36,894 bases of DNA from Elusimicrobiota bacterium. GTDB taxonomy: Bacteria > Elusimicrobiota > Elusimicrobia > Elusimicrobiales > UBA9959. The stretch covers positions 1-36,894 of the forward strand of contig DAOWGR010000023.1 in the NCBI GenBank assembly GCA_030637365.1, written 5' to 3'. The notes beneath the pieces were generated by a model. The model saw only the letters and a list, made by a program, of their open reading frames with translations. It was not told the origin of the DNA and did not search any database. A program made the position numbers and the translations under genes. Position 1 is the first letter of the stretch, and every line of letters starts with the position of its first letter. Shown here piece after piece: positions 1,053 through 29,591 of the stretch.

Positions 1053-1114
1053 CCCACACACTTACATATTGTCTACAGCTTATTTTAGAGAAAATTTCTA
1101 AGTATAATGTAAGT

Positions 1115-1534
1115 GTGAGGGTAAATTCATTATCGTTATCAATTAATTGGATAAGAATTTCCATAGTTTTATTTTCTTTTATTCTTTTTTGCGCTTGCGC
1201 GAGTAAAATGGATATTCTTCAAACCGGTCCGTGGTCTGATAAGCGCGATTTTAAAGATATTAAGCATTTTATATCAAGAAAACAAATTGAAAAGCCTTGG
1301 ATTGCCATAGCTGTTATTCGCGGCTATAAAGTTAATCCGTCTGATAGAAAAAGTATAAACAAACAGATTGAAAAGGCAAAAAAAATGGCCGCGGACATAG
1401 GAGCCGACGCGGTGGTATTGGAGGAGGGGGCGGTTCCTGAAAAAACTTCTTTTACTGAAGATATTGGGAAAGTTTTTTTAACGGGCATTGCCATAAAATA
1501 TGTTGCCGAAGATTACTCAAAACCAAAAAAATAA
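1115..1534 (+). CDS. Small secreted protein or lipoprotein, unknown function (start uncertain)
   Basis: Hydrophobic leader IRISIVLFSFILFCACAS has a lipobox-like FCAC, followed by a hydrophilic 100-aa domain. The ORF-track start at 1019 overlaps hicA, so GTG at 1115 is a more plausible start. No family recognised. Confidence 0.45.
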   Translation: MRVNSLSLSINWIRISIVLFSFILFCACASKMDILQTGPWSDKRDFKDIKHFISRKQIEKPWIAIAVIRGYKVNPSDRKSINKQIEKAKKMAADIGADAVVLEEGAVPEKTSFTEDIGKVFLTGIAIKYVAEDYSKPKK

Positions 1535-2321
1535 ATATTCCGTTCGAGTCGCCTATGACGCCGATGAGATTAAGAAATGGAATGGAAGAGTCATTGTCGT
1601 GGATTTATTCCGGTTCTCAAATACCGTTTGCGCTCTTATGGCAAGCGGGAGAAAAAACATAAAAGTGTATTCAGAACCCAAATTCGCAGTTATCGCTAAA
1701 AAAAACGCTAAAAACACCGATTTGTTTTCAGAGATTGATTTTCCAGCCATTGACAGATATGACAATCCCACCACCCGCTTATCCCGCTTAAAAGCGGGAT
1801 CAAAAAAAACAAGCGGCGCCAATGGCGCCGCAAGCGGGTGGTGGGACAATTCCCCGTATCTTGCCATGAATTCCACTGACGCCTCCAAGGACGCTATTAT
1901 CGTAACCTGTTCGGGCGCGAAAACGGTTATGGCCGCGCATTGCGCCAAAGAAATAATTATAGGCTGTTTTGCCAATATGCCGCAGCTTTGCGAATACGCG
2001 AAAAAAAATAAAATGAATACTCTGATAGCGCCGGCCTGTATTTTTTATGATAGAAATCATGTGGAAGATTTTATATGTTCGCGCGCTTTACAAGACGCGT
2101 TTAATGGAAAAGATACTTTTCACGCCGCTCTTGAAGAAATACATAAAAGTTCCAGAATTCTTGATTTTATGGCTTTTAGGCCGGAAAACGGAAGAAAAGA
2201 TATTGAAATGATATTGAAGAAAGGAACAATGAAAATTTTACCGAAGGTTGTTATAAGGGGAGTTTTTGCCGAGGTTTTTGATGTTTTAGGCTGTGAAGCG
2301 GGGGCGCGAAATGAAGTTTAA
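1500..2321 (+). CDS. 2-phosphosulfolactate phosphatase (ComB) family-like protein carrying a 28-codon palindromic-element insert
   Basis: VIVVDLFRFSNTV, D-NSP (split by the insert), VTCSGAKTV and VEDFICSRAL resemble the ComB/2-ph_phosp family layout. Overlaps the preceding ORF by 35 nt and queC by 11 nt. Confidence 0.6.
   Translation: MLPKITQNQKNKYSVRVAYDADEIKKWNGRVIVVDLFRFSNTVCALMASGRKNIKVYSEPKFAVIAKKNAKNTDLFSEIDFPAIDRYDNPTTRLSRLKAGSKKTSGANGAASGWWDNSPYLAMNSTDASKDAIIVTCSGAKTVMAAHCAKEIIIGCFANMPQLCEYAKKNKMNTLIAPACIFYDRNHVEDFICSRALQDAFNGKDTFHAALEEIHKSSRILDFMAFRPENGRKDIEMILKKGTMKILPKVVIRGVFAEVFDVLGCEAGARNEV
1766..1846 (+). repeat. 81-nt palindromic element (copy A), translated in frame within the ComB-like gene
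   Basis: Perfect 15-bp terminal inverted repeat, TCCCACCACCCGCTT (1766-1780) and AAGCGGGTGGTGGGA (1832-1846). Internal hairpins ATCCCGCTT/AAGCGGGAT (1781-1800) and GCGGCGCC-AAT-GGCGCCGC (1813-1831). A8 run at 1802-1809. Direct ACAAT at 1762-1766 and 1846-1850. Confidence 0.85.
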
Positions 2322-4231: not shown

Positions 4232-6133
4232 ATGGCAAACAAGAGGAATTTCATTTTTAGAGCTTTCTTTATGTTTTTTATCTCATTGCAATTGGCCGCG
4301 GGCCAATCGGCTATTGCTTTGGATAAAGATGATGAAATCGGAGATTACAGAGAAAAAATAATAAATACGGCCAGGGAGCTTGGCATTGGCGTTTATGAGG
4401 ATTGGCCCGTTGAATTTGCCTGCGAAGACAATGATTTTAAAAGCGAAGAAATTATTTTTTCAGAACCTGTAAATTTTGGACAAACTTTTGAAGTTCCGCC
4501 GCCGGCGTTCGCATACGCGGATGAAAACAATCAAAACGGCGTTGGCAAAGGGCAAAAATTTAAAATCGGTCAAACGGCGATTAAGCGTCATGATGTTTCC
4601 GCCGGGCGAGCCGCGCCAAAAACAGCGGTTGAAGAGAAGGCCGGAGAATCGTCTTTTTTTAGGAAAGTTTTCACCGGAGTCAAAAATTTCTTTGGTTCAA
4701 TCTTTAAAAAAAATGACCAAACGGAGTCTCAACGGACAAATCGGACTCGGATTTCAAACAAGGTTGAAAAAACCACTTTAGCCGATGAAGTCAAAATATT
4801 TGGATGTCTGGTTACTTTTTTTTACGCTCTTAAAGCCAAAATAATGGACTATGGTTTTTTGCCGTGGACTACCGCCGCTCCGTCATTTGATGAAATATCC
4901 AAAAACGCGATAGCCATGTTAAAAAATTCCGATTTCAAGCAGAGAAAGGCGGGTCAAACATCTTTGCTTAAAGAAGAAGGCTTTATAAAAGAATTGGAAA
5001 TATTATCCGGGGCCAAATTCACTGAAGGAAATACGGTAAAGTTTTTGGTAGACGGCGCGTCTTTCATTGTGAAGTATAAGTTTATAAGAGAGGCGAAAAA
5101 AAGCGTTCATATCGCCAATTACGCTTTTCACGACGATATTACCGGCAATGAAACCGCTGATATGCTTATAGCCAAGAAGAATGAGGGGCTTGATATTAAG
5201 ATAATCGTTGATCATAAAGTCGCTTACATGCTCGGAGGAAAAGTTATTAAACGCATGCAAAAAGCCGGCATAGAAATTTTGCGCTATATGGAATCTGACA
5301 GAACGGGGGATATTTGGCACGCAAAGTTGCAGATAGTGGATGATAAATACGCTATTGTCGGCGGCATGAATTATGGCGATTATTATTCGCATAAAAATCC
5401 CAATGGCCAAAAATGGCGAGATACCGATGTTCTTTATTTTGGCCCGGCCGTAATGGAGACAAAGAAAATCTTTGCCGAAGTTTGGAACAATATGGCCGCG
5501 GAAAAGGGTTTTGAACGCGTGGATATGAATATTCAGCCAAAACCGGATTTTAATGAAGGTTCTTCGCGCGTCGCCGTTGTTTATCAAAATCCTCCGGCGG
5601 CTTCATCCTCGCCGATACTTATGAGTATCCTTAAAGCCATTTACGGCGCGACTGAACGCGTTAACATTGAAAATGCTTATGTTATCGCCATTCCCGCCGT
5701 TAAATATGCCATATTGGATGCCAGAGCGCGAGGTGTTAAAGTAAATGTGCTGACCAATTCAAAGGAAAGCATAGATTGTGACGGTAAACCTATGGCTGAT
5801 GTTATAATTAAAGGACTTAGGCCGTTAATTCGCGCCGGCGTAAAAGTATACTTAAAAAAAGGCGATACGCTTCACAGCAAGTTTATGACTGTTGACGGTG
5901 TTTTTTGTTCCGTCGGCTCCTATAATTTGCATCCCAGGAGTGAAAGATTTGATACGGAATTAAATATAAACATTATCGATTCCGCGAGTGTCGGGCGGCT
6001 TGATTCAATATTCGCCAAAGATTTGGCCAAAGCCATTAAAATAAATTCCGTGGAAGATCTTAATTATAAGTCGAGCTGGTTGTCAAGAATAATAGAAAAA
6101 TATTTCTATGCCATCTTGTCTTCAAACAAATAA
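4232..6133 (+). CDS. Secreted phospholipase D / cardiolipin-synthase-like superfamily protein, copy 1 (two HKD motifs)
   Basis: Signal peptide FIFRAFFMFFISLQLAAGQSAIA. HKD motifs WHAKLQIVDDKYAIVGGMNY and LHSKFMTVDGVFCSVGSYNL. An N-terminal region of about 250 aa has no recognisable family. Confidence 0.85.
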   Translation: MANKRNFIFRAFFMFFISLQLAAGQSAIALDKDDEIGDYREKIINTARELGIGVYEDWPVEFACEDNDFKSEEIIFSEPVNFGQTFEVPPPAFAYADENNQNGVGKGQKFKIGQTAIKRHDVSAGRAAPKTAVEEKAGESSFFRKVFTGVKNFFGSIFKKNDQTESQRTNRTRISNKVEKTTLADEVKIFGCLVTFFYALKAKIMDYGFLPWTTAAPSFDEISKNAIAMLKNSDFKQRKAGQTSLLKEEGFIKELEILSGAKFTEGNTVKFLVDGASFIVKYKFIREAKKSVHIANYAFHDDITGNETADMLIAKKNEGLDIKIIVDHKVAYMLGGKVIKRMQKAGIEILRYMESDRTGDIWHAKLQIVDDKYAIVGGMNYGDYYSHKNPNGQKWRDTDVLYFGPAVMETKKIFAEVWNNMAAEKGFERVDMNIQPKPDFNEGSSRVAVVYQNPPAASSSPILMSILKAIYGATERVNIENAYVIAIPAVKYAILDARARGVKVNVLTNSKESIDCDGKPMADVIIKGLRPLIRAGVKVYLKKGDTLHSKFMTVDGVFCSVGSYNLHPRSERFDTELNINIIDSASVGRLDSIFAKDLAKAIKINSVEDLNYKSSWLSRIIEKYFYAILSSNK

Positions 6134-6150
6134 AAAGAACTTAACAGATT

Positions 6151-8094
6151 ATGGAAAGAATACAGAATATTAATTTGATAACCAAGAGGAATTTTATTTT
6201 CAGAACTTTCTTTATATTTGTTGTTTCATTGCAATTGGCCGCGGGACAATCGGCGATTGCTTTGGATAAAGATGCTGAAATCGGCGATTACAGAGAAAAG
6301 ATAATAAATACGGCCAAGGAGCTTGGCATTGGCGTTTATGAAGATTTGCCCGTTGAATTTGCCGGCGCCACAAGCGGGCGGCGGAATAATTATTCCAAAT
6401 ATGAAAAGTTTGTTTCTTCAAAAACTTTAAATTTTAGAAAAATACCTGAGGTTCCGCCGCCGGCGTTCGCATACGCGAATGAAAATAATCAAAACGGTTT
6501 TGGCAAAGGGAAAGAATTTAAAATTGATCAAACGGAGATTAAGCGTCATGATGTTTCCAATGGGCGCGCGATGCCAAAAACAGCGGCTGAAGAGAAGGCC
6601 GGCGAGCCGTCTTTTTTCGTGAAAGGTTTCACCGGAGTAAGAAATTTCTTTGGTTCAATCTTTAAAAAAAATGACCAAACGGATTCTCGGCGGCAGGTTT
6701 CAAGGAAAATTTCAAAACCGTCTGTCATTGACAATATCAGAGTATGCTGGGGTTATGTATTTAATCTCTTTCACGCCATGAGAGCTGTAATTGTCGATTC
6801 CGGTTTTTTGCCGGGCACTATCGCGGTTCCGTCATTTGATGAAATATCCAAAAACGCCATAGCTATGGTAAAAAATTCCGATTTTAAGCCGAGAAAAGCC
6901 GGACAGCCGTCTTTGCTTAAAGAAGAAGGCTTCATAAAAGAATTGGAAATATTATCCCAAGCGAAGTTTACCGAAGGCAATACGATTAAGTTTCTCATAG
7001 ACGGCAAAGTTTCTTTTGCCATGAAGGATAAACTTATGAAAGAAGCGAAAAAAAGCGTTTATATAGGAGCCTATCTCTTTTTTGACGATATAACCGGTAA
7101 TGAGACCGCCGATATACTTATAGCCAAGAAGAAACAAGGCCTTGATATTAAGATAATTGTTGATCATAAAATCGCTTGTGTGCTCGGAGCAAGAGTTATT
7201 AAACGCATGCAAAAAGCCGGCATAGAAATTTTGCGCTATATGGAATCTGACAGACGGGGGGATTATTGGCATGTAAAATTGTTGATAGTGGATGATAAAT
7301 ACGCTATTGTCGGCGGCATGAATTATGGCGATTATTATTCGCATAAAAATCCCGATGTCCAACAGTGGCGGGATACCGATGTTCTTTATTCCGGTCCGGC
7401 CGTAATGGAGACAAAGAAAATATTTGCCGAAGTTTGGAACAATATGGCCGTTGAGAAGGGGCTTGATTTTAAAAAAATAGATATGGATATTCAGCCAAAA
7501 CCGGATTTTAATGAAGGTTTTTCGCGCGTTGCCGTCGTTTATCAAAATCCTCCGGCGGCTTCATCGTCACCGATACTTTTAAGCATCCTTAAAGCCATTT
7601 ATGGCGCGACGGAGCGCGTTAATATTGAGAATGCCTATTTTATCGCGATTCCCGCTGTTGAGCAGGCTATATTGGATGCCAGAGTGCGAGGAGTGGAGGT
7701 AAATATCCTGACCAATTCCAAGAAAAGTATAAATGAGGGAGCTAAGCAATTCATGTCCGACGCCATACTTAAAAGTCTTCCGCCATTAGTGACGGCCGGC
7801 GTTAATGTGTATATAAAACAAGGAGATAATTTACACAGCAAATTTATGACTGTTGATGGCATTTTCAGCAGTATCGGTTCGTACAATCTTCAACCAAAAT
7901 GCGAAAGATATGAAACGGAATTAAATGTAAATATTATTGATGCCGCAAGTGTCGGGCGGCTTGACGCGGTATTCGCGAAAGACATATCCGAAGCAAAAAA
8001 AATAAATTCAATAGACGAACTTAATCATAATCCCGGTTGGTTGGCGCGAATATTGGAGAAGTATTTCTTTTCCATGCTTTCGCCGGAAAAATAA
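6151..8094 (+). CDS. Secreted PLD-superfamily protein, copy 2
   Basis: Paralogue of copy 1, starting 17 nt after its stop. HKD motifs WHVKLLIVDDKYAIVGGMNY and LHSKFMTVDGIFSSIGSYNL. TTG at 6175 is an alternative start that aligns with the copy 1 start. Confidence 0.85.
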   Translation: MERIQNINLITKRNFIFRTFFIFVVSLQLAAGQSAIALDKDAEIGDYREKIINTAKELGIGVYEDLPVEFAGATSGRRNNYSKYEKFVSSKTLNFRKIPEVPPPAFAYANENNQNGFGKGKEFKIDQTEIKRHDVSNGRAMPKTAAEEKAGEPSFFVKGFTGVRNFFGSIFKKNDQTDSRRQVSRKISKPSVIDNIRVCWGYVFNLFHAMRAVIVDSGFLPGTIAVPSFDEISKNAIAMVKNSDFKPRKAGQPSLLKEEGFIKELEILSQAKFTEGNTIKFLIDGKVSFAMKDKLMKEAKKSVYIGAYLFFDDITGNETADILIAKKKQGLDIKIIVDHKIACVLGARVIKRMQKAGIEILRYMESDRRGDYWHVKLLIVDDKYAIVGGMNYGDYYSHKNPDVQQWRDTDVLYSGPAVMETKKIFAEVWNNMAVEKGLDFKKIDMDIQPKPDFNEGFSRVAVVYQNPPAASSSPILLSILKAIYGATERVNIENAYFIAIPAVEQAILDARVRGVEVNILTNSKKSINEGAKQFMSDAILKSLPPLVTAGVNVYIKQGDNLHSKFMTVDGIFSSIGSYNLQPKCERYETELNVNIIDAASVGRLDAVFAKDISEAKKINSIDELNHNPGWLARILEKYFFSMLSPEK

Positions 8095-10059: not shown

Positions 10060-10114
10060 GAGGCGCGGAAGTTCGAAAGCGCGAAATACCGGATAGAAAC
10101 GGAATTATATAAAT

Positions 10115-10150
10115 AAATCGCAAATCCCCGGGATTTGCGATTTGTTTTTT
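10115..10150 (+). terminator. Rho-independent terminator after the PLD triplet
   Basis: AAATCGCAAATCCC / GGGATTTGCGATTT is a near-perfect palindrome followed by G-TTTTTT. Confidence 0.75.
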
Positions 10151-13623: not shown

Positions 13624-15501
13624 ATGGTTAAAAAAGTGCGTAAAAAAAACATCATTTTTTTTGGAATATTTTTATTGATTGGAGTTTTGGGCGCAAATGC
13701 CGCGGATAGTCCCACTATCCGCTTATCGACCGAAGGGCGATCAAAAAAAACAAGCGGCGCCAATAGAGCCGCAAGCGGGTGGCGGGACAGTTTTAATCCT
13801 GCCGGCTGGCAAACCAATAATAATTTTCCTTTAATAGGCTCGCCAAAAGCCAAAAAAGGCGGAACCATGCGTTTTTTTTGGCGCAGTTATCCCGCCACAT
13901 TAAGAACAAACGGCCCTAACGCGAATTTTTTTACCATTCAGGAAATTCAAAGCGTGGTTTATGAATCTTTAATTGATATTCATCCCGAGACAATGGAATA
14001 TATTCCCGGCCTTGCCGATTATTGGCGCGTGTCCCCAGATAAAAGAAAATTTTCATTTCATATAAATCCGAAAGCCGCATGGGCGGACGGAAGTCCGGTT
14101 ACGGCCGAGGATATTGTGGCCACTTGGGAATTTCGGACTCGCGCCGATATAAAAGATCCATATTCGGTTATGATGTGGGCCGATAATTTTGAAAAACCCA
14201 TAGCTGAAAGCGAATATGTTGTTTCGGTTAAAACAAAAAAACTTAATTGGCGTTTGTTTTTATATTTCGGCAGAATGGATATATATTCCGCCAAAGAAAT
14301 GAAAAAACTTGCCGGAAAAGAATATCTTAGGGACTATAATTGGAAGATGCAAATGGGTTCGGGTCCTTATGAATTAAAATCCGAAAACATTAAAAAAGGG
14401 CATTCTTTAATTATTACAAGGCGTGAGGATTATTGGGCCGCCAATGAGCGAAGAAATATCGGCGTTAATAATTTTGACGCGGTATCCTGGATTGTAATTT
14501 TGGATGAAGAATTGGCGTTTGAAAAATTTAAAAAAGGGGAGATTGATTTTTATTATGTTTCAAGGGCGCAGAGATGGGCAAATGAATGTGATTTTGACAA
14601 AATAAAAAAAGGCTGGATACAAAAGCGCAAAATTTATACTCAAGCTCCGGAAAGTTTTTTGGGTTTTGCTTTCAATATGAGAAAGCCGCCTTTTGATAAT
14701 CGCGACGTGAGAAAGGCTTTTTCTTTTCTTCTAAATCGCGAAAAGCTTTTAGACAAGCTTTTTTTTAATGAATACGCCTATATAGACACTTATTTTCCCG
14801 GCGGAGAATGGGGAAATCCAAATAATCCGAAAGTGCGACATAATCCGAGAAGAGCCGCCAAACTTCTTAAAAAGGCGGGATGGAAGAACAGGAATAAAGA
14901 GGGCTGGCTTATTAAAGACGGAAAAATTTTTGAACTGACGCTTGAATACGGGTTTAATGGCTGGACCAAGATTCATAAGGTTATCAAAGAAGATATGAAA
15001 AAAGCCGGAATTAAGCTTAATCTCAAATTGATTGATCCCAGAACCTTGATGAAGAAGGTAAATGAACGCAATTTTACCTTGCATTATAAACTATGGGGCG
15101 GCTTCCTGTTTCCAAATCCCGCCGTTATGTGGTCGTCTGAGCTTGCCGATGAAAAATATAATAATAATTTACCCGGATTTAGAAATGAGAAAGTTGACGC
15201 GCTATGCGCGAAATATGACCGCGCGTTTGACAGAGAAGAGCAGAAAAAAATCATAAAGAAGATTGATGCCGCGATTTTTAGGGAATATCCTTATGCGCTT
15301 TCATGGTATACCGATTTTAATCGTATTCTTTATGCCAATAAATTCGGTCATCCGAAAACATATTTTTCAAAGATTGGAGATTTTAGAGACATAAAAACAC
15401 TTTGGTGGCTGGACGCGCCCAAAGAAAAAGCTTTGTCTGAGGCTGTAAAAGAAAATAAGAGTTTGCCGGTTGGAAAAATCATCCAAAAGCCATGGAAATA
15501 G
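13624..15501 (+). CDS. yejA: ABC transporter substrate-binding protein, family 5, YejA-like, copy 1 (carries palindromic-element insert after signal peptide)
   Basis: Signal peptide IIFFGIFLLIGVLGANA, about 600 aa, paralogue of 15760-17541. Lies in an operon with YejB/YejE-like permeases. Confidence 0.85.
   Translation: MVKKVRKKNIIFFGIFLLIGVLGANAADSPTIRLSTEGRSKKTSGANRAASGWRDSFNPAGWQTNNNFPLIGSPKAKKGGTMRFFWRSYPATLRTNGPNANFFTIQEIQSVVYESLIDIHPETMEYIPGLADYWRVSPDKRKFSFHINPKAAWADGSPVTAEDIVATWEFRTRADIKDPYSVMMWADNFEKPIAESEYVVSVKTKKLNWRLFLYFGRMDIYSAKEMKKLAGKEYLRDYNWKMQMGSGPYELKSENIKKGHSLIITRREDYWAANERRNIGVNNFDAVSWIVILDEELAFEKFKKGEIDFYYVSRAQRWANECDFDKIKKGWIQKRKIYTQAPESFLGFAFNMRKPPFDNRDVRKAFSFLLNREKLLDKLFFNEYAYIDTYFPGGEWGNPNNPKVRHNPRRAAKLLKKAGWKNRNKEGWLIKDGKIFELTLEYGFNGWTKIHKVIKEDMKKAGIKLNLKLIDPRTLMKKVNERNFTLHYKLWGGFLFPNPAVMWSSELADEKYNNNLPGFRNEKVDALCAKYDRAFDREEQKKIIKKIDAAIFREYPYALSWYTDFNRILYANKFGHPKTYFSKIGDFRDIKTLWWLDAPKEKALSEAVKENKSLPVGKIIQKPWK
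13710..13787 (+). repeat. 78-nt palindromic element (copy B), translated in frame within yejA-like copy 1
   Basis: Arms TCCCACTATCCGCTT (13710-13724) and AAGCGGGTGGCGGGA (13773-13787): 12 Watson-Crick pairs, 2 G-U pairs, 1 mismatch. It has the same A8 run (13743-13750) and the same internal order as copy A. It is absent from the paralogue at 15760. Confidence 0.85.
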
Positions 15502-15759: not shown

Positions 15760-17541
15760 ATGAAAAATATTGTTTTAGCAGGAATTTTTTTACTGTTTGG
15801 GGCATTTGGTTCAAACGCTTTGGCGGATGTTTTTAATCCCGCCGGATGGGACAGCAATAATGATTTTCCTCTGATAGGTTCGCCAAAAGCCCAGAAGGGC
15901 GGCGAGCTTCGTTATTACTGGCAAAGTTTTCCTCCCACATTAAGAACTGAGGGGCCAAATTCAAATTTTGTGCCCAATAATGAGGTTCAAAGTTTGATGT
16001 ATGAATCATTGGTAGGTCTTCATCCCACAACATTGGAATATATTCCGGGACTTGCAAATTACTGGAAGATATCCGCTGACAAAAGAAAGTTTTCATTTCA
16101 TGTAAATCCAAAAGCCGCATGGGCTGACGGCAGCCCCGTTACCGCCGAGGATGTGGTCGCCACTTGGGAATTTCGTATTCGCGAAGATATAAAAGATCCG
16201 TATTCGGTTATGATGTGGGGCGGAAGTTTTGAAAAGCCCGTTGCTGAAAGCAAATATGTGGTTTCGGTAAAGACAAAAGAACTTAATTGGCGTTTATTTT
16301 TATATTTCGGCGGTATGGCGATATATCCGGCTAAAGAAATGAAAGTTCTTACAGGAGAGAAATATCTTAAGGATTATAACTGGAAAATGCAAATGGGTTC
16401 GGGGCCTTATGAAGTAAAACCTGAAAATATTACAAAGGAACATTCTCTGGTTGTTACAAGGCGCGAGGATTATTGGGCCGTCAATGAGCGAAGAAATATC
16501 GGCATTAATAATTTTGATAAAATATCATGGAAAGTTATTTTAGATGAAGAATTGGCTTTTGAGAAATTTAAAAAAGGCGAGATTGATTATTATTATGTCA
16601 ATAAATCACAGAGATGGATTGAGGAATGCGATTTTGACAAAATAAAAAAAGGCTGGGTTCAAAAGAGAAAAATTTATACACAAGCGCCGAAAGGTTTTGG
16701 CGGTTTTGTTTTTAATATGAGAAAGCCGCCTTTTAACAATCGCAATGTCAGAAAGGCCTTTTCTTTTCTTTTTAACCGCGAAAGACTTATAGATAAGCTT
16801 TTTTTTAATGAATATGATTATATAGACAGCTATTATCCCGGTGGAGATTGGGGTAATTCCGATAATCCGAAAATTCGTTATAATCCGCGCCGAGCCGCAA
16901 GGCTTCTTAAAAGAGCCGGTTGGACAAATAGAAACAAAGACGGCTGGCTTGTCAATAAAGACGGAGAAATTTTTGAATTGACTCTTGAATATGGTCAGCA
17001 AGGGTCTACCAGAATTCATAAGGTTATCAAAGAGGAGATAGAAAAAGCGGGAATTAAATTTAATCTTAAATTGATTGATTCCAGAACTTTAATGAAAAAA
17101 GTCAGTGAACGCAAGTTTACTATTCATTTTCAAAGTTGGAGAGCTACATTGTTTCCAAATCCGAAGAGTTCGTGGAATTCAGAGCTTGCCGGAGCGCACA
17201 CAAATAATCTTCCGGGTTTTAAGAATAAAGGAGTGGATGAATTGTGTAAAAAATATAATGTTACATTTGACAGGGCGGAGCAGAAAAAGATTATAGGGGA
17301 AATAGACGGCATAATTTTTAGAGTTCATCCGTATGCTCTTGGATGGTATGGTAATAATAGTCGTGTTCTTTATGAGAATAAATTCGGACATCCTAAAGAG
17401 TATTTTTCAAAAATTGGCGATTACAATGATATAAAAACTTTTTGGTGGTATGATAGGGCAAAAGAAAAAGCTTTATCTGAAGCTATAAAGAGTAATAAAA
17501 GTTTGCCTATCGGAAAAACCATCCAAAAACCGTGGAAATAA
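15760..17541 (+). CDS. yejA: ABC transporter substrate-binding protein, family 5, YejA-like, copy 2
   Basis: Signal peptide IVLAGIFLLFGAFGSNALA. Collinear with copy 1 and highly similar throughout the mature domain. Confidence 0.9.
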   Translation: MKNIVLAGIFLLFGAFGSNALADVFNPAGWDSNNDFPLIGSPKAQKGGELRYYWQSFPPTLRTEGPNSNFVPNNEVQSLMYESLVGLHPTTLEYIPGLANYWKISADKRKFSFHVNPKAAWADGSPVTAEDVVATWEFRIREDIKDPYSVMMWGGSFEKPVAESKYVVSVKTKELNWRLFLYFGGMAIYPAKEMKVLTGEKYLKDYNWKMQMGSGPYEVKPENITKEHSLVVTRREDYWAVNERRNIGINNFDKISWKVILDEELAFEKFKKGEIDYYYVNKSQRWIEECDFDKIKKGWVQKRKIYTQAPKGFGGFVFNMRKPPFNNRNVRKAFSFLFNRERLIDKLFFNEYDYIDSYYPGGDWGNSDNPKIRYNPRRAARLLKRAGWTNRNKDGWLVNKDGEIFELTLEYGQQGSTRIHKVIKEEIEKAGIKFNLKLIDSRTLMKKVSERKFTIHFQSWRATLFPNPKSSWNSELAGAHTNNLPGFKNKGVDELCKKYNVTFDRAEQKKIIGEIDGIIFRVHPYALGWYGNNSRVLYENKFGHPKEYFSKIGDYNDIKTFWWYDRAKEKALSEAIKSNKSLPIGKTIQKPWK

Positions 17542-21330: not shown

Positions 21331-21375
21331 CTCCCGAATCGGAAATTTGTTTAAAACAAATTTCTTATTCGGGAG
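21331..21375 (+). promoter_or_regulatory. Long intercistronic hairpin between the two ATPase genes
   Basis: CTCCCGAAT-CGG-AAATTTGTTT ... AAACAAATTT-CTT-ATTCGGGAG gives 9 bp plus about 10 bp of stem around a 3x3 internal loop. It lies in a 118-nt gap inside the operon. Confidence 0.5.
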
Positions 21376-29503: not shown

Positions 29504-29591
29504 CGGAAGGGGAGGGATTCGAACCCTCGAAAGCCATTAAGACTTTACCGGTTTTCAAGACCGGCTCCTTAAACCGCTCGGACACCCTTCC
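29504..29591 (-). tRNA. tRNA-Ser (anticodon UGA), class II with long variable arm
   Basis: Minus strand reads GGAAGGG-TG-TCC-GAGCGGTTTAA-GGA-G-CCGGT-CTTGAAA-ACCGG-TAAAGTCTTAATGGCTTTC-GAGGG-TTCGAAT-CCCTC-CCCTTCC-G. The 7-bp acceptor, 3-bp D stem, 5-bp anticodon stem, 6-bp variable stem, T-arm and G73 all fold. CCA is not encoded. Confidence 0.95.

Follow-up and report, generated by a model that had tools for sequence, protein, structure and literature searches.

The 36,894-nt stretch of Elusimicrobia DNA analysed here (the window: assembly GCA_030637365.1, contig DAOWGR010000023.1, forward strand, to which coordinates refer unless another locus is named) carries an 81-nt palindromic element inserted, in frame, in a gene of the ComB family. 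The element is a member of a dispersed repeat family of a small clade of uncultured Elusimicrobia, found both between genes and within them, and in every coding copy it is read in the same frame. [quoted passage not shown] Colonisation of genes in frame is known from Rickettsia; the present repeat family has not previously been described.

A palindrome inserted in a ComB-family gene

The core of the element (subtype A, plus strand) occupies 1766-1846. It begins and ends with 15-mers, TCCCACCACCCGCTT on the left (1766-1780) and AAGCGGGTGGTGGGA on the right (1832-1846), which are 100% complementary over their 15 nt, and its interior consists of hairpin 1 (1781-1800), an A8 run (1802-1809) and hairpin 2 (1813-1831). 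The minimum free energy fold of this copy (89-nt stretch, single strand) is a three-way junction of -60.4 kcal/mol, with Watson-Crick partners in 31 of 31 modelled pairs; 200 dinucleotide shuffles averaged -25.2 +/- 3.1 (z = -11.3), none of them as stable. The complementary strand is equally foldable, at -62.0 kcal/mol. Frames +0, +2, -1 and -2 run through the element without stops, while +1 and -0 contain them. The initial annotation, made from the sequence alone, had described a 15-bp terminal inverted repeat, two interior hairpins with an A8 run between them, a three-way-junction fold, and open frames besides that of the host, one in the sense and at least one in the antisense direction; all of these are borne out, the open frames being +2 and, in antisense, -1 and -2.

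The host gene (1500-2321, plus strand, 273 aa) matches PF04029 at 59.6 bits (cut-off 26.4), and by this score and its predicted fold the protein is assigned to the ComB, or 2-phosphosulfolactate phosphatase, family. Its 166 homologues come almost all from Elusimicrobia metagenome-assembled genomes (MAGs), and those with names are Elusimicrobia. As first proposed, the open reading frame (ORF) spans the element unbroken (...RYDN PTTRLSRLKAGSKKTSGANGAASGWW DNSPY; insert at residues 89-116), and what the element splits is the conserved DNSP motif: ...RY-DNSP... is uninterrupted in 116 of 119 aligned PF04029 orthologues, including one with 80% identity outside the insert, in which RY|DNSP is contiguous. 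Distant orthologues offer no general homologue of the insert peptide, which is present at this site in only three of the 119 (P0001, the window protein; P0002; and P0003). The window protein keeps all 31 invariant residues of the alignment. In their nucleotide sequence, orthologues with an empty site have TAT GAT AAT TCT and filled ones TAT GAT AAT [core] GAT AAT TCT, with GAYAAT once in the former and twice in the latter. Another ComB orthologue, P0006, has the element elsewhere, near its N-terminus (AAT AAT TAT [core] GAT TAT TCC), where its empty relative P0010 has AAT GAT TAT TCC. The element at 1766-1846 is an insertion of DNA into the ComB-family gene. Two more distant orthologues, P0032 and P0093, share an unrelated 24-residue insert (EAELNTDLCHLAPPSAANRNGGI / EAELNTELCRFAPPPAANHKGGI, alignment columns 231-254) elsewhere in the protein; a repeat may have entered the gene in frame here too, in an Elusimicrobia lineage other than the present one.

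The ends of the element are terminal inverted repeats of 15-16 nt, (T)CCCACCACCCGCTT...AAGCGGGTGGTGGG(A). The outermost pair of the core is T...A or, in two copies, C...G, so that it belongs to the inverted repeat. GA precedes the insertion point at every independent site, and the 3 bp flanking the core on each side are concordant within each site and variable among sites: CAA/CAA for the window ComB copy; TAA/TAA for the ComB copies of two other loci (L002 and L003), for copies in flavoprotein and MurC genes, and for copies 3′ of hicA in the window and in L004; TTA/TTA at the ComB N-terminus and for a copy upstream of hicA in L002; TGA/TGA 3′ of hicA in L002; and TAG/CAG in a solute-binding protein gene of the window. 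Filled and empty forms were compared for two sites with orthologues at the DNA level, and for one with a paralogue. In the window ComB gene this comparison places the left CAA at 1763-1765, inside GACAAT, and the right CAA at 1847-1849, which with G1845-A1846 and T1850 recreates the GAC AAT (Asp-Asn) of DNSP. A flanking direct repeat had been recognised from the outset, as ACAAT; the duplication stands, and its extent is better drawn as 3-bp CAA within GACAAT...GACAAT. The flanks taken together are best fitted by a 3-bp, TWA-type target duplication following GA. Core and duplication add 81 or 84 nt, that is, 27 or 28 whole codons, so the reading frame of the host is never shifted.

A dispersed repeat family and its turnover

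Copies were sought in the window and in fetched loci of other genomes with nhmmer and with a covariance model built from the eight intact copies found there (copy 1, at 1766-1846, scores 104.5 bits). These come from independent NCBI, ENA, and Logan assemblies and represent about 80 kb of loci from several MAGs, several of the loci having been picked because they bear inserts; L002 and L031 are from MAG GCA_022013385.1, and L003 from GCA_030614195.1. The DNSP site of ComB is filled in the window, L002, and L003; the remaining intact copies lie at the ComB N-terminus (L004), in a gene for an SBP_bac_5 solute-binding protein (window), in a gene for an HI0933-like flavoprotein (L031, and again in an independent Logan assembly), at the start of MurC (L135), and between genes, precisely at the stop codon of hicA (L004). 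All eight cores are either 78 nt (subtype B) or 81 nt long (subtype A). The coding insertions thus occupy five sites in proteins of four families, with a single frame shared by all, and further, degenerate copies, recovered by the covariance model at E 2e-7 to 4e-9, accompany the intact ones.

In its 36.9 kb the window has two intact copies, two degenerate ones and one remnant. Only the intact pair had been listed initially: both are real, but the list was incomplete, lacking 797-848, 1053-1121, and ~6364-6385. The second copy, originally placed at 13706-13791, exists and has the codon phase then given; its coordinates need correction to 13707-13790 (plus strand, subtype B), made up of TAG (13707-13709), a 78-nt core (13710-13787), and CAG (13788-13790). 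It is found by nhmmer at E ~1e-29 and scores 88.7 bits with the covariance model; its strand and codon phase are those of copy 1. Its stems show partial decay, with Watson-Crick partners in 24 of 30 pairs, and its RNA fold has -40.4 kcal/mol (z = -5.3). The copy interrupts the SBP_bac_5 gene at 13624-15501 (plus strand) directly after the signal peptide, with junctions ..ANAAD|SPTIRLS...GWRDS|FNPAGW. A tandem paralogue at 15760-17541 (plus strand) has no insert (..NALAD V FNPAGW..) and serves as an internal empty-site control, and the orthologue in L002 has a shortened remnant of the element.

A second tandem pair in the window, of PLD-like genes (4232-6133 and 6151-8094, each with two PLDc_2 domains), parallels that of the solute-binding proteins: in each pair an element or remnant is present in one member only, providing an internal control. 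The remnant, at ~6364-6385 (plus strand) in the second PLD-like gene, is a probable in-frame piece of the 3′ end of the element, GGCGCCACAAGCGGGCGGCGG, before AATAAT. It matches the element 3′ end at 22 of 27 bases, and is read in frame as GATSGRRNN vs. GAASGWWDN; the paralogue is exactly 15 nt shorter at this point, and has GACAAT there. On its own the remnant scores weakly (nhmmer E 0.02; covariance model 8.6 bits), but with these comparisons the surplus is probably a decayed copy.

The degenerate copies are on either side of a gene for a HicA toxin (PF07927; 864-1052, plus strand). The copy at 1053-1121 (plus strand; 31.9 bits, E 2e-7) is AT-enriched and sits at the hicA stop codon, in the arrangement TAA (1050-1052)|CCCACACACTTACAT...ATGTAAGTGTGAGGG|TAA (1122-1124), with arms that are 94% complementary. 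The same site has a copy of 68.9 bits in L004 (the intact one) and of 21 bits in L002, and is empty in L003 and L136. The copy upstream of hicA, at 797-848, is short and of ambiguous strand (15.4 bits; CCCTTCCCGCCCGCTT...AAGCGAGTGGTGGGG, flanks TTG/TTA); its orthologue in L002 (3917-3989) scores 37.4 bits, and this site too is empty in L003 and L136. Window hicA is therefore bracketed, by one degenerate copy just before its ribosome-binding site and another exactly at its stop codon, and hicA of L003 and L136 has neither. No hicB antitoxin gene is evident beside the window gene. A mechanically called ORF at 1019-1534 begins inside the element at 1053-1121; judging from its orthologues, which have 127-137 aa in L002 and in L003, the true start of this gene, whose small product has a lipoprotein-like signal sequence, may be near 1140, in which case this copy would be intergenic.

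Among the matches listed from a scan of reference genomes with a loose pattern (GCTTATY N{30,55} GCCGCAAGCGGG), only that in L031 is a true copy, and searches of plasmids and phages did not find the element. A word-indexed protein search with two translated frames of the element gave P0122 alone and passed over carriers already known, so that it serves neither as a census nor as a test for inserts in antisense frames. A further protein, P0123 (211 aa, with six tandem repeats containing EEPTTRLSW), matched by the insert profile among representative proteins, was considered as a family member and rejected as a chance match to the short PTTRLS motif.

The distribution of filled sites among ComB orthologues points to turnover. 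In a protein tree that ignores the insert, the three orthologues filled at DNSP do not group together as a clade: P0002 has 91% identity to P0004, which is empty, and P0001 and P0003 lie apart, with empty orthologues between them. The window ComB copy is of subtype A, flanked by CAA, and is nearest (89%) to the flavoprotein copy of another genome; those of L002 and L003 are of subtype B, flanked by TAA, and the L002 copy is nearest (86%) to the N-terminal ComB copy of L004. Either the same ComB codon has been hit more than once, or there have been several precise losses and one replacement; on either history the element has been mobile within the clade.

Reading frame, mobility and alternative explanations

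Every coding copy encodes a peptide of the form PTT(R)L...KK..G....A.SG(W). Within an ORF, a GA|TAA target can be in one of two phases, GAT AAx or xxG ATA Axx, since the third (xGA TAA) is a stop codon, and is where the copies at the end of hicA sit. In the xxG ATA phase the element is translated as IPPPAY...*, with a stop in most copies. Of 250 GAT[AT]A sites in window genes, counting both strands, 80 (32%) are in the viable sense phase, against which the single frame of all coding copies is an in-frame excess. The five copies found without any peptide search (window ComB, window solute-binding protein, PLD-like remnant, ComB N-terminus, and flavoprotein) all fall in this class, for which 0.32^5 = 0.003. 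We infer purifying selection against the other classes of frame and orientation. Antisense insertions read in frame -1, which is open (LSHHPLAA...), could be translated as well, and none was seen among the copies found.

The orientation of the element has another correlate. A terminator scan identified a module with the form of an intrinsic (Rho-independent) terminator on the minus strand at 1802-1831, GCGGCGCCATTGGCGCCGC then TTGTTTTTTTT: the hairpin read from 1831 to 1813, with the following TTGTTTTTTT, has -16.2 kcal/mol and 9 T in the next 10 nt. Seven of the eight intact copies have such a module in antisense (hairpins of -5 to -16 kcal/mol, 7-9 T per 10 nt), and none of the eight has one on the sense strand. 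If the module is active in termination, as its form suggests it may be, reversed copies would place a terminator-like signal in the mRNA of the host gene. That this is the cause of the co-orientation is plausible as a hypothesis, but it is not needed: target phase together with stops explains most of the bias. Sites for such reversed copies (17 of the 250 in window genes) are too scarce for the present sample to decide.

A scheme consistent with these properties would run as follows. The mobile unit would be the core, with its terminal inverted repeats around two hairpins separated by a run of A7-8; it would be mobilised in trans, presumably by a DDE-type transposase, and insert at GA|TWA-like sites with a duplication of ~3 bp, adding 27 or 28 codons. 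Duplications of 3 bp are made by subgroups of the IS5 family and by PIF/Harbinger-like elements. Of the six possible readings of an inserted copy, one would persist in genes, the open, hydrophilic PTTRLS..KK..SG..AASGW: the GAT AAx phase would yield this open peptide and the xxG ATA phase the stop-containing frame. The insert would then be translated and tolerated by the host protein as a disordered loop, and since the surviving orientation puts the terminator-like module in antisense, the host mRNA should not terminate there.

The same palindrome might instead move by a hairpin-recognising, single-strand or site-specific mechanism, unlike that of a classical MITE: candidates are an HUH enzyme of the IS200/IS605 or RAYT (REP-associated tyrosine transposase) type, or a recombinase acting on a folded strand. 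The GA and GATAA-like repeats would then be a recognised cleavage or target motif, and not the product of staggered cuts. The constant GA on the left of all independent sites, taken with the ..GGGA at the right end of the element, agrees with this, as do the compact folded palindrome with its conserved subterminal hairpins, and the repeated hits on one codon in orthologues, which suggest sequence-specific targeting. On the other hand, the adjacent 3 bp vary from site to site yet match within a copy, as duplication predicts; the perfect inverted-repeat termini are unlike the ends of IS200/IS605 elements; and none of the loci examined showed a gene for RAYT or TnpA. A mechanism of this kind is unlikely, though it is the most serious competitor of a MITE-like element moved by a DDE-type transposase.

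Several observations do weigh against a MITE-like mobile element. The duplication itself is formally ambiguous in length, between 1 and 6 bp, as the ends of the repeat overlap the flanks. Once target phase and stops are allowed for, the orientation bias alone is not significant (0.51^5 to 0.82^5). In the window and the fetched loci, to which the copy counts refer, no larger element bounded by matching terminal repeats was found that could be a partner, and no transposase accompanying such repeats. The family also looks rare. A stricter pattern had 10 matches in JGI metagenomes, none of which fits the element model, and a strict pattern produced no true copy in IMG/VR; a profile search of 1.84 billion representative proteins found the insert only in P0121 and P0122, these representatives being clustered at 50% identity, which hides most insert-bearing alleles. 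As to present-day movement, there is no sign of it in protein clusters of at least 90% identity, where no filled/empty polymorphism was seen. Finally, the ComB inserts of different lineages are 81-85% identical, vs. 67-72% for these genes at their synonymous third positions, a conservation in which constraint and recent replacement are indistinguishable here.

A stronger version of the proposal is that the element is specialised for life inside genes, a "codon-safe" invader acting as an active, site-specific generator of loop insertions. Arguments for specialisation are the addition of whole codons only, the two subtypes one codon apart, the single open and disorder-prone frame, the sole stop-free in-ORF phase of the GA|TAA target, and the confinement of the terminator to antisense; the argument for site specificity is the repeated hit on, or precise exit from, the codon beside the ComB DNSP motif in separate lineages. 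This can be entertained tentatively, and is rather doubtful.

Covariation in the stems bears on what the palindrome is maintained as. In a MAFFT alignment of the eight copies over three helices, standard pairs fill 92.9% of helix cells, vs. 35-52% with slid partners. The stems do covary: 11 pairs, distributed over all three helices, have changes on both sides, a number matched by none of 500 shuffles. Helix 1, formed by the terminal arms, is 97.5% paired over the eight copies, with three pairs altered on both sides. G-U cells (11) and A-C cells (10) are about equally frequent, and both strands fold alike, so that the RNA of neither strand is favoured; the strand-specific RNA reading was rejected on this symmetry. 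The covariation points to a double-stranded DNA palindrome, and its palindromy could be kept up by the needs of a transposition machinery, by turnover from a master copy, or by hairpin-templated repair.

This makes it improbable that the element is a functional structured RNA of mRNAs (a regulatory element, processing site, or small RNA), kept for its fold and spread only secondarily. The great stability of the fold (z = -11), compensatory changes in all three helices, and the conservation of the ComB inserts above that of synonymous sites would be expected of such an RNA. The balance of G-U and A-C cells and the equal folding of both strands would not; nor would the unrelated contexts in which copies occur (a loop adjacent to an active-site motif, the region after a signal peptide, N-termini, a stop codon), or the decay of copies, some down to remnants. 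In an Rfam scan nothing at the element reaches a gathering score. Copy 1 has a weak match, of 23.4 bits (gathering 45.3), to RF03049 RAGATH-24, likewise a multi-hairpin junction with a long closing stem, and its ends loosely match those of the motif (UGACAaUCC...GGACA); one of the RAGATH-24 hairpins is missing in the element, however. An identity with RAGATH-24 was rejected, the match being below threshold and absent from the second window copy, the L003 copy, and other loci.

At the protein level, an AlphaFold2 model of window ComB (from the 119-sequence alignment) is confident overall, with a mean predicted local distance difference test score (pLDDT) of 88 and a predicted template modelling score of 0.85. 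The insert appears in it as a low-confidence loop: pLDDT falls to ~48 over residues 91-110, with the flanking strands intact. The ComB fold is retained: the best Foldseek matches of the model are structures of this family, 1vr0 (E 7e-12), 2z0j, and 2yyv, of which 1vr0 also matches by sequence. The insert peptide is hydrophilic (grand average of hydropathy -0.76), and because the 3′ duplication rebuilds the Asp-Asn codons the DNSP motif is undisrupted. For the HI0933-like flavoprotein, alignments with PDB homologues cover the sequence before and after the insert, and ~39 residues of the query there have no counterpart. The insert is thus likely to form a disordered surface excursion, judging from these models. 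Could it instead be a selected protein module of 27-28 residues, moved by recombination, its palindromy incidental? The conserved ends of the peptide (PTT.L..., AASGW) and the single frame of every coding copy might be so explained, but the ends are simply the translated inverted repeats, changes that preserve pairing rewrite the middle of the peptide (SRLKAGS, SPERRL, SPKGRL, LPMGQL), intergenic copies exist, flanking duplications mark insertion at the level of DNA, and AlphaFold2 gives the insert no confident structure; such a module is very improbable.

A chimeric join through the repeat, in assembly or binning, comes to mind for sequences that are all metagenome assemblies, and can be set aside almost entirely: the same insert-bearing ComB is present in an NCBI contig and an independent ENA scaffold, further members of its cluster are on other ENA contigs, the flavoprotein copy occurs both in an NCBI MAG and in a Logan assembly of a different run, and the reading frames continue unbroken before and after the insert.

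Related repeats and other features of the window

The closest parallel in behaviour is with the Rickettsia palindromic elements (RPE-1 to RPE-10; Ogata et al. 2000, summarised in PMC10969869 and PMC1779305), repeats of 100-150 bp in coding and intergenic DNA (PMC1779305, PMC10969869). As in the present family, these are short palindromic repeats that occur between genes and in frame within unrelated housekeeping genes, with a family-specific peptide tolerated by the host proteins, and old copies persist as lineage-specific protein inserts or remnants. The RPE-like behaviour proposed at first therefore holds as an analogy (unrelated genes, one frame). It does not extend to membership, no sequence relationship having been demonstrated: RPEs belong to Rickettsiales, while the present element is 78 or 81 nt long, belongs to Elusimicrobia, has clear terminal inverted repeats, a matched 3-bp duplication and strictly whole-codon length, and has a terminator-like module on one strand only. 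MITE anatomy, that is, terminal inverted repeats with target duplication, does not usually figure in descriptions of RPEs.

That anatomy is present here: the element is small, has terminal inverted repeats and a target duplication, and so has the structural features of a MITE; its only long open frame is that of its host, and the core contains no transposase gene. With Coxiella QMITE1/2 (PMC5896051) and with intragenic ERIC, BOX, and Anabaena MITEs (PMC10969869, PMC3184786) it shares small size without a transposase gene, terminal inverted repeats, a short A/T-rich target duplication, a folded structure, and possible co-transcription and translation with host genes. Incidental in-frame fusions of MITEs have been reported in Coxiella, enterobacteria, pneumococci, and cyanobacteria (PMC5896051, PMC3184786, PMC10969869). 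The present repeats differ in being a separate sequence family in a separate phylum, and, most MITEs being mainly intergenic, in that most intact copies here are intragenic and share one frame (in a small and partly biased sample). The Correia elements of Neisseria share MITE features too.

REP (repetitive extragenic palindromic) sequences with their composite BIMEs (bacterial interspersed mosaic elements), and the pneumococcal SPRITE, are similar as G+C-rich palindromes in A+T-richer genomes, and as hairpins with T-runs resembling terminators. REPs, however, are 20-40 nt long, extragenic, mobilised by RAYTs, and without target duplication, unlike the element; membership in REP/BIME was rejected on its length of 78 or 81 nt, three-way junction, intragenic position, and flanking duplication. 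SPRITE is intergenic, whereas the element forms a three-way junction within ORFs and has its terminator in antisense.

A different kind of likeness is with the "byps" of Magnusiomyces mitochondrial genes and with phage T4 gene 60, in which ribosomes bypass an insert; such inserts as a rule contain stops or disrupt the frame. The element is, like these, a G+C-rich hairpin inserted in coding sequence between identical codons (GAY AAT), at which ribosomes could in principle take off and land. The coding copies here, in contrast, are all stop-free, with lengths that are multiples of three and subtypes 3 nt apart, which argues for translation of the insert. It is only remotely conceivable that some ribosomes hop over it by virtue of the strong hairpin and the same codons on both flanks.

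The initial annotation had not recognised the sequence family, and indeed no description of it was found in the literature searched, nor is it in Rfam; a literature search on palindromic repeats in Elusimicrobia returned nothing relevant. Beyond what textbooks hold are the whole-codon design, the subtypes one codon apart, the repeated use of one codon adjoining a catalytic motif, and a terminator-like module confined to antisense. The family offers, in a distant and barely studied phylum, a case of selfish palindromic DNA surviving inside essential genes, presumably by way of translation, with an anatomy clearer than that of the Rickettsia elements: inverted repeats, matched duplication, empty sites, length classes, and in-frame decay remnants. 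It is also a natural experiment on the gain of protein loops, beside a catalytic-motif residue in one case and right after a signal peptide in another, and the patchy occupancy of one ComB codon gives a handle on insertion-site specificity or precise excision. For annotators, a 27-28-residue insert of this type should not be taken as a lineage-specific protein feature, and contigs of these MAGs probably break in part at such repeats.

A different palindromic repeat, of ~110 nt, occurs in opposite orientations at L002 7350-7465 and L031 2395-2505 (both from MAG GCA_022013385.1), and is absent from the window. Its terminal inverted repeats are CCCAAAAGCTCACAT...ATGTGAGCTTTTGGG, with CCCA at the start and TGGG at the end, as in the element studied here; this may be a further MITE family, dependent on a related transposase.

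The sole Rfam match in the window at gathering level is a tRNA of 88 nt with a long variable arm (29504-29591, minus strand, 57.9 bits), for which the printed alignment suggests an anticodon UGA, of Ser-type class II. Two intergenic, near-perfect hairpin palindromes with 1-nt loops, one with 22-nt arms at 21331-21375 and one with 18-nt arms at 10111-10147 (14.6 bits with the covariance model), are probably ordinary terminators, unrelated in sequence to the element.

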